Below, piece by piece: positions 136 through 34,980 of a stretch of DNA of 64,000 bases. A program made the translations under genes and the position numbers. This DNA is from Camelus dromedarius (taxonomy: Eukaryota), in assembly GCF_036321535.1 (NCBI RefSeq), contig NC_087436.1, positions 69,070,001 to 69,134,000 of the forward strand. The letters are read 5' to 3'. Positions within the stretch are counted from its first letter, which is position 1. Each line of letters opens with the position of its first letter. Below the pieces are notes generated by a model. That model ran no database searches. It was given only the letters and a program-made list of their open reading frames with translations, and was not told where the DNA came from.

Positions 136-313
136 CTTCTAAAGCAGTGGGCAGCACTCACAAGCCATGTGCCATTAATTAAAGTCGCTCCACAGCGATG
201 TCTCCCATCCCATCGCAGGCTAGCCTGCCACGGCCATTCATCCTCTTGTGCCTCTGTCCCACCAACAACCATGACCCTATATTTTGCAGTTTTGTTCCTT
301 CGTGTCCCACAGC
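136..313 (-). CDS. TMPRSS11E: TMPRSS11E (DESC1)-like type II transmembrane serine protease; exon with the activation site and catalytic His (human exon 7 equivalent)
   Basis: Translates (C)[58 protein letters not shown], closely matching recalled DESC1. Acceptor ttggcag at 314-320 and donor gtaaa at 131-135; 178 nt. The gene continues beyond the window start. Confidence 0.92.
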
Positions 314-1525: not shown

Positions 1526-1564
1526 AATTGCTCAGAAAGTCGTCTGTTTCTGTCTTGTTGATTT
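1526..1564 (-). CDS. TMPRSS11E: TMPRSS11E 39-nt linker exon (human exon 6 equivalent)
   Basis: tttcag|AA ATC AAC AAG ACA GAA ACA GAC GAC TTT CTG AGC AAT T|gtaag gives (K)INKTETDDFLSN(C), versus human KINKTETDSYLNHC. Phases join both neighbouring exons correctly. Confidence 0.92.
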
Positions 1565-5320: not shown

Positions 5321-5429
5321 TTTTAAGTACAAATAACTCAAGATTTAAGTTAGGGGATCCTACAGCATCTTGCAGCTTTTCATGTAGAACACGCTGAATA
5401 ATTATATTTGTGGTTTCAGGATCCTCAGT
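5321..5429 (-). CDS. TMPRSS11E: TMPRSS11E SEA-domain exon (human exon 5 equivalent); 5' part lost in the assembly gap
   Basis: [36 protein letters not shown] versus human [36 protein letters not shown]. Phase-1 donor gtaagt starts at 5320. Confidence 0.9.
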
Positions 5430-5629
5430 NNNNNNNNNNNNNNNNNNNNNNNNNNNNNNNNNNNNNNNNNNNNNNNNNNNNNNNNNNNNNNNNNNNNNNN
5501 NNNNNNNNNNNNNNNNNNNNNNNNNNNNNNNNNNNNNNNNNNNNNNNNNNNNNNNNNNNNNNNNNNNNNNNNNNNNNNNNNNNNNNNNNNNNNNNNNNNN
5601 NNNNNNNNNNNNNNNNNNNNNNNNNNNNN
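5430..5629. other. Assembly gap (200 N)
   Basis: Run of exactly 200 N between an exon and an L1 fragment. Confidence 0.99.
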
Positions 5630-7148
5630 AGTCTTTCACTTCCTTGGTCAGATTTATCCCTAGGTATTTTATTTTTTGGATGTGATTTTAAAAGGGATTG
5701 TTTCTTTACTTTCCTTTTCTGATATTTCATTGTTAATGTAAAGAAATGCCACTGATTTCTGTATGTTAATCTTGTATCCTGCTACCTTGCCAAATTCTTT
5801 TATCAGCTCTAGTTGTTTTTGTGTGTAGCCTTTAGGGTTTTCTATATATAGTATTACATCATCTGCATATAGTGATAATTTTACCTCTTCTCTTTAAATT
5901 TGGATCTCATTATCTCTTTTTCTTATCTATTTGCTATGACTAGGACTTCCAACAGTATATTGAATAGAAAGCAGTGGTGAGAGTGAGCATCCTTGTCTCA
6001 TTCCAGATTTTAGTGTGAAGGCTTTCAACTTTTCACCGTCGAGTATTATGTTGGCTGCAGGTTTGTCATAAATAGCATTTATTATGTTGAGATGTGTTCC
6101 CTTTATATCTACTTTAATTAGAGTTTTTATCATAAATGGGTGTTGAATTTTATCAAATGCTTTTTCTGCATCTGTTAAGATGATCATGTGATTTTTGTCC
6201 TTTCTCTTGTTGATGTGGTGTATCACATTGATTGATTTGCCTATGTTGAACCATCTTGGTGTCCCTGGGATGAACCCAACTTGATCATGGTGTATAACCT
6301 TTTTTATGTGTTATTGGATTCTGTTTGCTAATATTTTGTTGAGGATTTTTGCCCTATGTTCATCAACAATATTGGCGCATAGTTTTCTTTTTTGGTAGTG
6401 TCTTTGTCTGGCTTTGGTATCAGGGTGATTGTGGCTTCACAGAATGAGTTTGGGAGTATCCCCTCCTCTTCAGTCTTTTGAAGGAGTTTGAGAAGGACTA
6501 GTATGAACTCTTCTTTGTATGTTTGATAGAATTTCCCAGTGAAGCCATCTGGTCCTGGACTTTTGTTTGCAGGGAGGTTTTTCATTGCTGATTCTATTTC
6601 ACTTCTAGTGATTGGTCTGTTCAAATGATCTGTTTCTTTTTGATTCAGCCTTGGTGGACTGTATGTTTCTAGCAACTTGACCATTTCTTCTAGGTTGTCC
6701 AATTTATTGCCCTATAGTTGTTCATAGTATTTTCTTATGATTTTTTGTATTTCTGTGGTGTTGGCTGTAATTTCTCCATTTTCATTTCTTATTTTGTTTA
6801 TTTGTGTCCTCTCTCTTTTCTTCTTGGTGAGTCTGACCAGAGGTTTGTCAATTTTATTTATTCTTTCAAAAAAGCCAGCTCTTGGTTTGATTGATTTTTT
6901 ATATTGTCTTTTTAAATCTTTATTTTATTTCCTCCCTAATCTTTATTATTTCTTTCCTTATGCTGACTTTAGGTTTTGTTTGTTCTTCTTTTTCTAATTC
7001 TTTTAAGTGGTATGTTATATTGTTTATTTGATATTGTTCTTACTTTTTGAGGAAAGTCTGTATCGTTATGAACTTCCCTCTTAGGTCTGCTTTTGCTGCA
7101 TCCCACAGAGTTTGTGTGGTTGTGTTTTCATTGTCATTTGTCTCAAAG
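5630..7148 (-). mobile_element. L1 ORF2 fragment (EN-RT linker and RT N-terminus), disrupted
   Basis: ORF pieces [43 protein letters not shown] and [12 protein letters not shown]. Its 3' part runs into the gap. Confidence 0.95.
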
Positions 7149-30962: not shown

Positions 30963-31633
30963 TGTTACTGAATTCACTCAAGAATCCAGTACCGAGAGAC
31001 ATGTTTTGGGTAAAAAGAAAGATAACTTTATTGAGGAAGCTGGAGATCCTGGGGATAAGGTGGACTTACATCACAAAGAACCAATTCCCCACTCCCTCTT
31101 TACTGAGAGATTATATAGGGAAAGAGGAAAGGGCTATGTGCTAGGGTGGGGGTTAATCTTCTATTTTCAGAGACGATTGTCTCCATCATGCCATTCCAAG
31201 TAGCCATCATGTATTGCTTGCAGTTGCAACATGACCTGAGCCATAAATCTCTGGTCAGCTAGTTTTTCTGGTTCCAACTGGTCTGGGGTCTGTGTGCCTG
31301 TGGGCAGCACACAGTTAATTTCTTCCATCTGGTGAGTGTTTCAGTATCTGCAAAACAGCTCAAAGGATATGGCTCAGAATGTTATCTATATCCCTTGAGG
31401 AGGAAGTAAAGGTCCTTGATTTTGTTTAATGGCTAAACTAGTAATAACTTGCCTCGCTTGACTATTTTCCTTTGTTTCTGCATTTTCTCATTTCTCTGAT
31501 TAAATTTATTGTTTGGAACTTGGGGAAGGCTAGGAAGCTGAAGTTTTTCTACAAACAAGTGGTAGGCAGAAGACATGGAGGGGAGGAGGGGGTCTGTTCT
31601 TGGGAAGGTCCCCTAGGGTACTGCTCAGTTACA
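30963..31633 (-). mobile_element. Solo ERV1 LTR
   Basis: Minus strand tgtaactgagcag...cagtaaca; near-TSD aagg/aggg; U3 similar to the 24667 LTR. Confidence 0.8.
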
Positions 31634-32263
31634 AGGGGACTTTTCCTACTACTGGCGAATTCTGGATGCTGTTGGATTCTGCCAAGCAGCTCCTGAGCAA
31701 GGGAGTCCTGCTTCAGAGAGACTCAGCGGATCTCCAGGGACAGTTCCAGGGCCCTACGGTTGAGAGAGGCAGAGAGCAGGTCAGAGGGGACTGGCTCCTC
31801 AGCAAGCTGGGAGCTCCTGGACCCGGGAGGGAGTGGGGGCTCCTAATCCCGAAACCAAGGAGGTCAGAGGGACCCAGGGTCTGGTTGCAGATAATTATCG
31901 CCCATATAAGGCATGGGGTTATCAGAGGCCCAGAAAGGCCAGAGTGTACTGGGATCAGGTACCTGCTCTGGGCAGTGGTGGATGGTGGTAGAGGCTCATT
32001 TGTTCATGGGCCCCTTCCAGGTTGATGAGGGCTCCTCTTAAGGCCTCCTCAGGGTCCTCCTGCACCTTTGCAGCTCCTCTTGCATGGACTGCAGCTCTAG
32101 CGCCATCTGCAGGCAGGGCATAGTCAGGGACACAGAGGCAGGTAGGTCCCAGCCTTGCTCTTCCCCACAGGGCAGCCCACCCACTTGTGCAGCCGCTCAC
32201 CTCTGGCATGGACATCGTATGCCACCCTTGTTCTATTTCCACTGGAGCTCTGCAGCAGGCGTT
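31634..32263 (-). pseudogene. Unidentified GC-rich, intron-containing gene-like fragment (three exon-like pieces, two GT-AG introns, disabled)
   Basis: Introns 32107-32200 (gtgagc...ccctgac...cctgcag) and 31754-31962 (gtacct...ctgac...ctctctcaaccgtag). Coiled-coil-like peptide pieces with frameshifts and a stop. Confidence 0.55.
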
Positions 32264-34980
32264 AGTCACACACTGTTACCACAAGTAGAAGAGATTCTCC
32301 ACTAGCTCCCAACACAAAGTCGAGTGGGTGCAGCTGACTGGTTGAGCCCAGGTCATGTTCCTGTGCACTTGCTGAAAAGGAAGATGGGATACCTAGTGTA
32401 CGGCCTTTGAGGCTTCTGTCAGGGATACTTATGATTAAGAATTCCCCAAATATAGGAAGGGAGTTTGTGCTCTGAGCAAAAAGAACAACAAAAGACAAAT
32501 ATTTACTTTAGACACTTACTGAGCTATGCCTGGCAATTTCTGGGTTCAAGGGATAGAAGTCAATGAAATAGTTCCTGCCTCTAAAAAGGTGTACAAGAAA
32601 GTACTTTATGAATTGGAAAGACCTCAGAAATTGAAGATACTAATATTACTGCAATAATTTTAATATCAAGATTATATTAATAGATTCTTAAGATATATTA
32701 GTTTTATTCAGATCTATGCCCAAGTGTCCTTCTATTTTCAACATCATCTGACTCTATCTAGGAGCCTAGATATCTGACCTCACATGCACAATATCATTTT
32801 TAACTAATAGATTTTGATGAGGATTAGCAGATAGCAACTCCAAAATTACAAAAATACAATATATATGGATGAGTTTCTGTGATTTCTCATTAACTACTGA
32901 AACTACAGTTCCTGGTCTACCAGAAGGACCACCTGTATTCATGTAGAGGCATGTCAAACAATGGTAGGAAAATAAATAGTAAACAAAATAAAAACTAATG
33001 TTATTTGTTTTCTATCATAAAGAGAGACTTTGGAATTTCAGATGTTTCGTAAAAGAATATATTACTTTTCCTACATTATGGTATAAAAGAACTGTGGATC
33101 TCTGAAGAGTATTTCTTCCTACACAAAGGAAAAGCCCCTCTCCAGGGTTAAATTAGTAATTAACATTCAGTGAGTTGAATGATTGATCTTCTGAAAGAAA
33201 GTATTGTAGGTCGTACTTAGTCACGCTGCTTATCGTGGCAATGAACCAGGGAGTTTGTGACTTAGCCTGTCCCAGAGGGATGGATCAAAATCAGAAGTGG
33301 AGGAACCACTGACTCACAAATCTTACTTCCTTGGGGAACAAATAATGAGAAACAGGTAACAACAATCGCAACCAGCAGGCAAATACTAAGAAAAAGAAGC
33401 AGGACTTTCTAGTTCCAACACAACTAGATCCCAAAGGGTTAGCTTGTTCATCTGTCTTCAAATTTCAAAATAGTCATTTCTGCAACTGCAAAATCACTTT
33501 GAAATGCAGTATGTATAAAAATTCACATGAAATAATCAGAAAATAATAAGCATAATCATGATGAAAATAAAAGAGGAAAGTGGCATCACTATCAATTTAC
33601 AGAGTGAATATAAACCAGTTTAGTTAATAATCGGTTTCCTTAGGTAATCTTTCTGAACCTATTCCTTCTCTAATTAGAAGATGAACAAGAAAAAAACAGA
33701 TGACAGCTGAATTGTAATCATCAACTCTGAGTGATGTAATAAGCTTTTTCTTTCTCACATGGTAATGTCTATCCTTCCTCACCCTAAAAAACACTCTTCT
33801 TTTTAAACTTTTTGAAGCACTTTAATCAGCAGCCAAAGAAAGATATTGTTCAGATTACCTAAGATGTAAAGTTGGCATTTTTCCACATGACATGTATTCA
33901 CTACATGATCAATTAAGGAGCCAACAGTGATGTTAAAACACACTGAATAGAATTAAATGTTCTACATGGAGATATAATATCCTCTTAATATTCACAGTTA
34001 AGACTATTAAGACTGTGCTGTATACTCCATTGCCTACTTTCTCTTTTGTGATTGTTCAAAGGAAGGGAGAAAATAAGAATATAGAGCAGAGGGTAAGTGC
34101 AAAGACAAATAATTTTGAGAGGCTCTGAGTTCCAAAGATAATCCTCATTCAAGGTCATGAATAATAATGAAAGAAAGGTAAAATGATAGCTTCAATTGAA
34201 GTACTTTCTAATGATAACACACTAAAATCTGTGAATGCAATTTAAGCCTCACATTATACCAATTAACAAGATAATGACAAAAGAAATTCCACTATTAAAA
34301 AAAATCACCATATTTATCACATAGAAAAGTGAAGGTTTTGATGAACATAGTGCATTATTTTCTTTTAAAATATACTTCCTACATTTATGTTTACTAGTAT
34401 AAATATATGTGTCAGGTAAAGCTTTACAGCTTATCTTGTTATTATCATTTGCCAAACTGAAACAATTAAAATATAACTGCTATGATATTTATTATCTTCC
34501 TCTTATCCCAGAAAGGATATAAGAGCAGGGGATCATCAGAAGCCTGAGAATTCAACATGCTCATCCCCAGATAGCACTGACTTTCATATGCTCTCAAATT
34601 ACTTCAGACCCCACACTCCCTGTTCTACTATGCATTATTATTTTTAAACAATCAAGTGCACAAAATTGAGTTAATCACACTCTATATTTCACTGTACTTT
34701 ATCAGCCTTTTGAATGCCTTTTTTTCTACTCTCATTCAGTATTTTTTCCATTCATCCACCATCTTTATCTCTCTTCAACTCGTGTACAAATATTATTATA
34801 TACTAAATGTAATATTAATAAAATATTAATTTATTATATATTAAAATACAGGCTTTTCCAGTCTGTCATCTCTATATTTATTTAGATACCCATGTATCCT
34901 TAAAAATAAGTATAGTGTTGCTTTCTAGGTGTCTGCATTTAATCTCCTTGAAAGATATTCTTTTATAAATCTCATATTTT

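Follow-up and report, generated by a model that had tools for sequence, protein, structure and literature searches.

Camelids have replaced the arginine after which TMPRSS11E is cut for activation with methionine, and across the camelid records sampled this Met-for-Arg change is real and fixed. The replacement is part of a burst of change on the camelid stem that, in the alignments, is centred on the activation machinery, leaves the catalytic residues untouched and is followed by stasis. We consider it slightly better than even that camelid TMPRSS11E is still an active protease that would have left tryptic activation, being cut after Met or matured in two steps as tryptase is.

Gene identity and the activation-site exon

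The observation comes from a 64-kb stretch of dromedary (Camelus dromedarius) DNA, referred to here as the window, which contains three TMPRSS11E exons on the minus strand (5429-5321, 1564-1526 and 313-136). These exons and the codons discussed below are as follows:

5430..5629, no strand: 200-N gap where the exons for residues 1-126 belong (cytoplasmic tail, anchor and most of SEA)
5321..5429, minus strand: remainder of the SEA-domain exon, residues 127-163, its upstream end cut by the gap at 5429
1526..1564, minus strand: 39-bp exon closing the SEA/stem region, residues 163-176, AG/GT ends, in frame
136..313, minus strand: 178-bp TMPRSS11E exon with AG/GT ends, covering the linker Cys, the activation site and the protease-domain start to His57
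279..281, minus strand: TAT, Tyr187 at P4; 71 of 97 non-camelid sequences have Gln, whose codons are two or more base changes away
276..278, minus strand: AGG, Arg188 at P3, camelid-specific; the others have Ser (91) or Gly (6 of 97)
270..272, minus strand: ATG, Met190 at P1; all 97 non-camelid sequences have Arg
258..269, minus strand: VVGG, the would-be mature N-terminus with Val16; Ile at P1' in 97 of 97 others
240..242, minus strand: GAT, Asp200 (chymotrypsin number 25); Gly in 95 of 97 others
147..149, minus strand: CAC, catalytic His57 (His231), codon read in the window; motif AAHCFR

The first-pass annotation had named the gene TMPRSS11E, and every comparison agrees. The exon at 136..313, which encodes residues 176-235 of the 422-residue camel protein, finds human TMPRSS11E/DESC1 as its best match among solved structures (PDB 2OQ5, E 3.5e-22) and is 100% identical to a Camelus ferus RefSeq protein named TMPRSS11E (P0005). 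Identity to the TMPRSS11E proteins of pig, cattle, horse and human is 72-78%, and in sequence the camel gene is closer to TMPRSS11E than to 11A, B, C, D, F or G; seven other cluster exons in the genome are only 48-62% identical. The order of domains (anchor, SEA, disulfide linker, S1A) is that of TMPRSS11E, P0005 has PF01390 and PF00089, and an AlphaFold2 model of the full protein has the SEA fold and places a helix at 17-45. Among 78 matches in the genome one is at 100%, and a search of them for another TMPRSS11E copy, bearing Arg, found none. By these measures the gene is the single camelid TMPRSS11E (DESC1), last of the TMPRSS11 cluster.

Three further exons just outside the window's start are intact, and the five complete exons, all with AG/GT ends, translate exactly to residues 164-422 of P0005. 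His231, Asp276 and Ser372 are present in this genome (codons His57 CAC, Asp102 GAT and Ser195 TCC, with GAT for Asp194), as is Asp189, and residues 127-422 contain no stop, frameshift or broken splice site. The downstream exons that had been named as a possible site of frameshifts, including those outside the window with the Asp and Ser of the triad, are thus intact. Residues 1-126 have no exons in the window, and the rest of the assembly offers just two chance-level matches to them. These residues are present in another dromedary record and in the wild camel and alpaca records, and because other camelid records are complete we read their absence here as an assembly gap. ORF2-like frames, which we take to be LINE-1, start directly past the 200-N gap (window 5630-6711, minus strand); this LINE-1-like stretch is a likely reason for the break in the assembly and the loss of the first exons.

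Other features were seen in and around the window. On the plus strand, from 59290 onward, a GC-rich island contains an ATG that starts MAADSREEK, with a splice donor after it; we take MAADSREEK to be the start of YTHDC1, which would sit head to head with TMPRSS11E. Another GC-rich stretch (window 31500-32300), in which several long frames free of stops lie on both strands, is possibly a retrocopy or retroelement remnant. Near-identical serine protease exons with the motif KPKVIGK are dispersed over many contigs (L005, L007, L009-L013 and L019; C1, C8, C20, C22, C23, C29 and C32 of G000). In some copies the Lys is followed by VYGS or AYSG, one copy contains a stop, and together they are probably a camelid multi-copy duplication family.

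The replacement of the canonical P1 Arg by Met, reported at 270..272 in the first-pass annotation, recurs in all the camelid records compared. The activation motif KYRVM-VVGG, with Tyr, Arg, Val, Met and Val from P4 to P1', is found in 6 of 6 camelid records (C. ferus, C. dromedarius and Vicugna pacos). These cluster members comprise the three named species, one further Camelus accession and one MetaClust record; alpaca is represented by two of them, and record P0112 may not be independent of the window since it ends at the same residue as the window's gap. P1 is Arg in all 97 other mammalian sequences, which do not amount to 97 species because isoforms and many primates are among them. The 97 are what is left of 110 proteins without the camel record and 12 proteins from other families, fusions or partial or mature-only entries, and the 11E-like domains among those 12 have P1 Arg too. 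Met at P1 is therefore not widespread in functional orthologues, a pattern that would have made the observation unremarkable. P1 Met, P3 Arg, Val16, Leu192 and Ser226 each occur in 0 of the 97 sequences. The basic P1 before (I/V)xxG, a canonical HAT/DESC feature, is absent in camel TMPRSS11E (Met190), and all seven TMPRSS11 paralogues in the same genome retain Arg or Lys at P1.

Gene conversion from a paralogue was considered as a source of the motif and rejected, the best 25-base match across six paralogue loci, three neighbouring loci and the window being 19/25. The hippopotamus is a second artiodactyl with an altered activation segment: the linker of its TMPRSS11E (P0104-P0106) is shorter by two residues, and IAGG follows an Arg that is intact. 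The third protease domain of a fused model from Sousa chinensis (P0002), TMPRSS11F-like with SSTESV-VQGS, is also without a basic P1, and may be a decayed whale gene.

Change on the camelid stem and later stasis

From residue 176 on, 171 columns are at least 90% conserved, and 12 of them have a camelid-private residue: S188R, R190M, I191V, G200D, G307D, D321E, G322N, Q369L, I384T, E396G, G404S and D414G. In chymotrypsin numbering, counted from Val16 and Ser195, the positions hit include 16, the autolysis loop, 192, 219 and 226. The activation-domain changes are I16V, D/G to E/N in the autolysis loop, Q192L and E219G, to which G226S is additional. The catalytic triad, Asp189, Asp194, Gly193, Trp215 and Gly216 are spared. 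The S1 and activation-domain changes that accompany P1 Met lie outside the 64-kb window.

We take the activation domain to be 16-19, 142-152, 184-194 and 216-223. The P values for clustering are optimistic, as the site sets were drawn after the changes were known: 5 of the 10 mature-domain private changes fall in the activation domain, which has 23 of 163 columns (P=0.006); distinct departures in other mammals, counted without four records with mis-spliced ends, fall there in 16 of 178 cases (Fisher P=0.002 against the camelid 5/10); and segments with low AlphaFold2 confidence in the uncut protein hold 8 of 13 private changes (P=0.0002). The AlphaFold2 model of the full protein (43-sequence alignment; mean pLDDT 70.3, pTM 0.55) is zymogen-like with low-confidence activation segments, and fits an active or a locked protein alike. 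Of the 15 codons examined, five would need two or more base changes to encode the usual residue. The autolysis loop has a new glycosylation sequon at Asn322, and there is a new unpaired Cys327. The trypsin-type S1 triplet Asp189-Gly216-Gly226 is broken, camelids having Asp, Gly and Ser, and among 199 motif matches in the fetched proteins only the 6 camelid records have a residue other than Gly at 226.

On a fixed species tree of 22 mammals the branch leading to camelids measures 0.25 substitutions per site, while seven other artiodactyls accumulate 0.065-0.115 between the artiodactyl root and their tips. The excess touches the stem and protease regions of the protein alike, and the whole protein evolved about threefold faster. 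Camelids separated from other artiodactyls 55-60 million years ago and camel from alpaca 16.3 million years ago, by the dates given in PMC12127551. On these branch lengths and comparisons TMPRSS11E was remodelled on the camelid stem, between those splits, and its protease half has been unchanged since.

The camel and alpaca proteins differ at five positions, all in residues 1-139 (P=0.004 for the clustering), with no difference in residues 140-422, the last 283. About 14 replacements would be expected under neutrality in those 283 codons (P about 1e-6 for the 0 seen), an expectation that assumes 2.2 replacement sites per codon, compares the alpaca side as protein and takes its yardstick from one locus, namely 38 fixed dromedary-alpaca intron differences in ~1,700 bp as counted from Table 2 of PMC12849490. 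Even 1% neutral divergence gives P=0.002 for 0 changes in 283 codons. Residues 1-139, with 6 base changes against 6.8 expected, evolve at about the neutral rate. An early pseudogene, one of the options first offered for this gene, is largely excluded by this freeze between camel and alpaca. By the same comparison, camelid TMPRSS11E is under constraint and is a variant of a known gene.

The signal anchor has changed as well. In P0005, P0114 and P0116 it is altered at residues 18-41, in exons outside the window. The first half of the camelid anchor has a mean hydrophobicity of 3.37, against a maximum of 3.07 among 94 other sequences, and the second half is more polar (0.6-0.8, against a mean of 1.7 in other sequences). 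Four of the five camel-alpaca differences fall in residues 18-49. To judge from its composition, the camelid anchor looks like a shift towards a cleavable signal.

Possible activation routes and rival explanations

If camelid TMPRSS11E is still an active protease, it would still be processed to free Val16, but not by a single tryptic cut at P1. VVGG is a functional N-terminus in matriptase and plasmin. The route we advance first, and tentatively, is a direct cut after Met, made by a chymotrypsin-like enzyme or by TMPRSS11E itself. Tissue kallikrein (KLK1) cuts after Met in kininogen. Self-cutting after Met is plausible because the S1 pair Asp189 and Ser226 is also that of human and pig KLK1 (PDB 1SPJ and 2PKA), an enzyme with mixed tryptic/chymotryptic specificity. 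Other features of KLK1 differ: it belongs to a distant S1A family, has a long 99-loop and is activated normally at Arg. Bulkier residues at 226 cripple trypsin and thrombin, and can simply block the pocket. The mixed specificity of KLK1 for Arg and hydrophobic residues is described in PMC3014083, and the residue at 219 contacts P1 Arg/Lys in TMPRSS11D (PMC12065894). Position 226 predicts specificity less well than position 189 (PMC4646688), and among the literature matches listed there was no paper on Gly226 to Ser. Ser226 is not a fixed mark of KLK1-type specificity, since the camel KLK1-like gene has Ala226 (L044:3999-4151, minus strand); this, together with the existence of other KLKs with mixed specificity, counts against Ser226 as the cause of KLK1 breadth.

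A second route, which we regard as rather unlikely, would take two steps: a tryptic cut after Arg188, following which cathepsin C or another exopeptidase would take off Val-Met. The Arg at P3 had been noticed from the outset and treated as a dead end. Its presence stands; the dead-end treatment does not, as Arg188 is found in none of the 97 other sequences and creates the protryptase layout Arg-X-X-(I/V)VGG, with Arg-Val-Met-VVGG in camelids beside QR-VG-IVGG (PDB 6P0P) and ER-AG-IVGG (protryptase in this camel genome). Protryptase matures by autocatalysis followed by dipeptidyl peptidase I (cathepsin C), according to PMC13604406. Met is among the P1 residues that cathepsin C prefers, and its P2 preference is for small aliphatic residues, with Val not among the best for the mammalian enzyme (PMC3962583). 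Cathepsin C is lysosomal, which counts against this route, and the P3 Arg could be chance, since Ser to Arg is a common single-base outcome. The likeness to beta-tryptase consists of Arg at -3, a small or aliphatic dipeptide, (I/V)VGG and Asp189. Beta-tryptase differs in being soluble, a tetramer found in granules and dependent on heparin and acid pH; the camelid protein shares the three-residue layout only, known from sequence. By a third route, which we think very improbable, the Val-Met end would itself insert.

A stronger form of the active-protease reading is that lock and key were both re-engineered, either with the Arg moved two positions upstream in convergence on tryptase maturation or with a KLK1-type S1 that would cut its own Met site; this is possible and, on balance, doubtful. 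The resemblance of camelid TMPRSS11E to tryptase and KLK1 is, by its motifs, confined to short stretches, and it is a member of neither family. With human TMPRSS11E/DESC1 orthologues it shares domain order, cluster-end position, the triad, Asp189 and Asp194. It differs from other TMPRSS11E proteins in P1 Met, P3 Arg, Val16, Leu192, Gly219 and Ser226, in an altered autolysis loop with a new sequon, in an extra Cys and in the altered signal anchor. Measured against a canonical HAT/DESC enzyme, it fails on the basic P1 and on the Asp-Gly-Gly S1 triplet.

A serious and somewhat less probable reading is that loss of Arg15 ended activation and left a locked zymogen, whose activation domain then drifted or was tuned, the uncut protein acting through weak single-chain activity, as a scaffold or as an inhibitor decoy. 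The invariance of P1 Arg in the other mammals is in keeping with this, and PMC2360300 names that Arg as the site where human DESC1 is activated. G226S, Q192L, the loop glycan predicted from the new sequon and the new Cys all fit a disabled site; the sequon and the unpaired Cys could equally hinder activity in a protease that was still cut. The clustering of changes in the activation domain is equally expected if constraint was lost after locking. A likeness exists in the zymogen-locked matriptase of engineered mice, a membrane protease that works without activation-site cleavage and supports mouse development (PMC5452369). It differs in being engineered and in having measurable zymogen activity, whereas the camelid change is natural, family-fixed and accompanied by S1 changes.

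Several observations sit less well with a locked zymogen. Freed of their role, the linker and activation domain (~48 codons) should drift, and about 2 changes would be expected between camel and alpaca where 0 are seen, a hand estimate that is weak alone. Retention of the triad and of the other spared residues at and around the active site is likewise weak alone. Features that give tPA its single-chain activity can be compared at positions 32, 40 and 156. In camelid TMPRSS11E the zymogen-stabilising His40 and Ser32 are retained and position 156 is Gln in our own numbering, so that single-chain features of the tPA type are absent.

That the gene is relaxed or silent and has so far escaped a frameshift is quite improbable. 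The roughly threefold acceleration of the whole protein on the stem, anchor and SEA included, and the near-neutral change that continues in residues 1-139 would suit such a gene. Against it stand the 283 unchanged codons, even with a neutral figure from one locus, and the uneven split of the five camel-alpaca differences taken alone. Only 12 of 171 conserved columns were altered on the stem, and the frame and splice sites of all five complete exons are intact.

A sequencing or assembly error at the P1 codon, for which it could be said that ATG is the single substitution from AGG that had been proposed, has negligible probability, because independent assemblies of other camelid species also have Met, the same residue appearing in records of three named species, two of the records from alpaca, amid neighbouring camelid-only changes. 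Fourteen of 24 listed sequencing runs contain 1.00 of the words sampled from a 2.2-kb stretch including the codon, which adds little since 13 of these 14 full-match runs are possibly from the same DNA source. Three runs on record as RNA, in which the stretch has shares of 0.52, 0.35 and 0.11, are uninformative on expression or tissue, and none of the 120 listed, out of 124, short protein fragments from read assemblies is camelid.

Meaning for type II transmembrane serine proteases

It is taken as a rule that type II transmembrane serine proteases are activated after a basic residue, and the pairing of activators with their targets is described as an open question in PMC12065894. Camelid annotation lists the gene as an ordinary TMPRSS11E. 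The results lend no support to the viral fusion-protein angle raised in the first-pass annotation. Our searches of titles and abstract openings, some of them loose, found no report of a camelid TMPRSS11E variant, and preprint supplements could mention one. A camelid selection scan (PMC12127551) has only 11F and 11A among the TMPRSS11 entries of its supplements, and so appears not to cover 11E.

Camelids have fixed the loss of the P1 Arg together with an altered S1 pocket and altered activation loops, and have kept the result for 16 million years in two lineages. If the protein is locked, it would be a natural, conserved, non-cleaved HAT/DESC protease, pointing to a function without activation. 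If it is active by a new route, it would reveal a path by which evolution can rewire a zymogen switch. Were lock and key both re-engineered, camelids would have a natural, family-wide type II transmembrane serine protease that is off the tryptic cascade yet active, possibly with its anchor turned into a cleavable signal.
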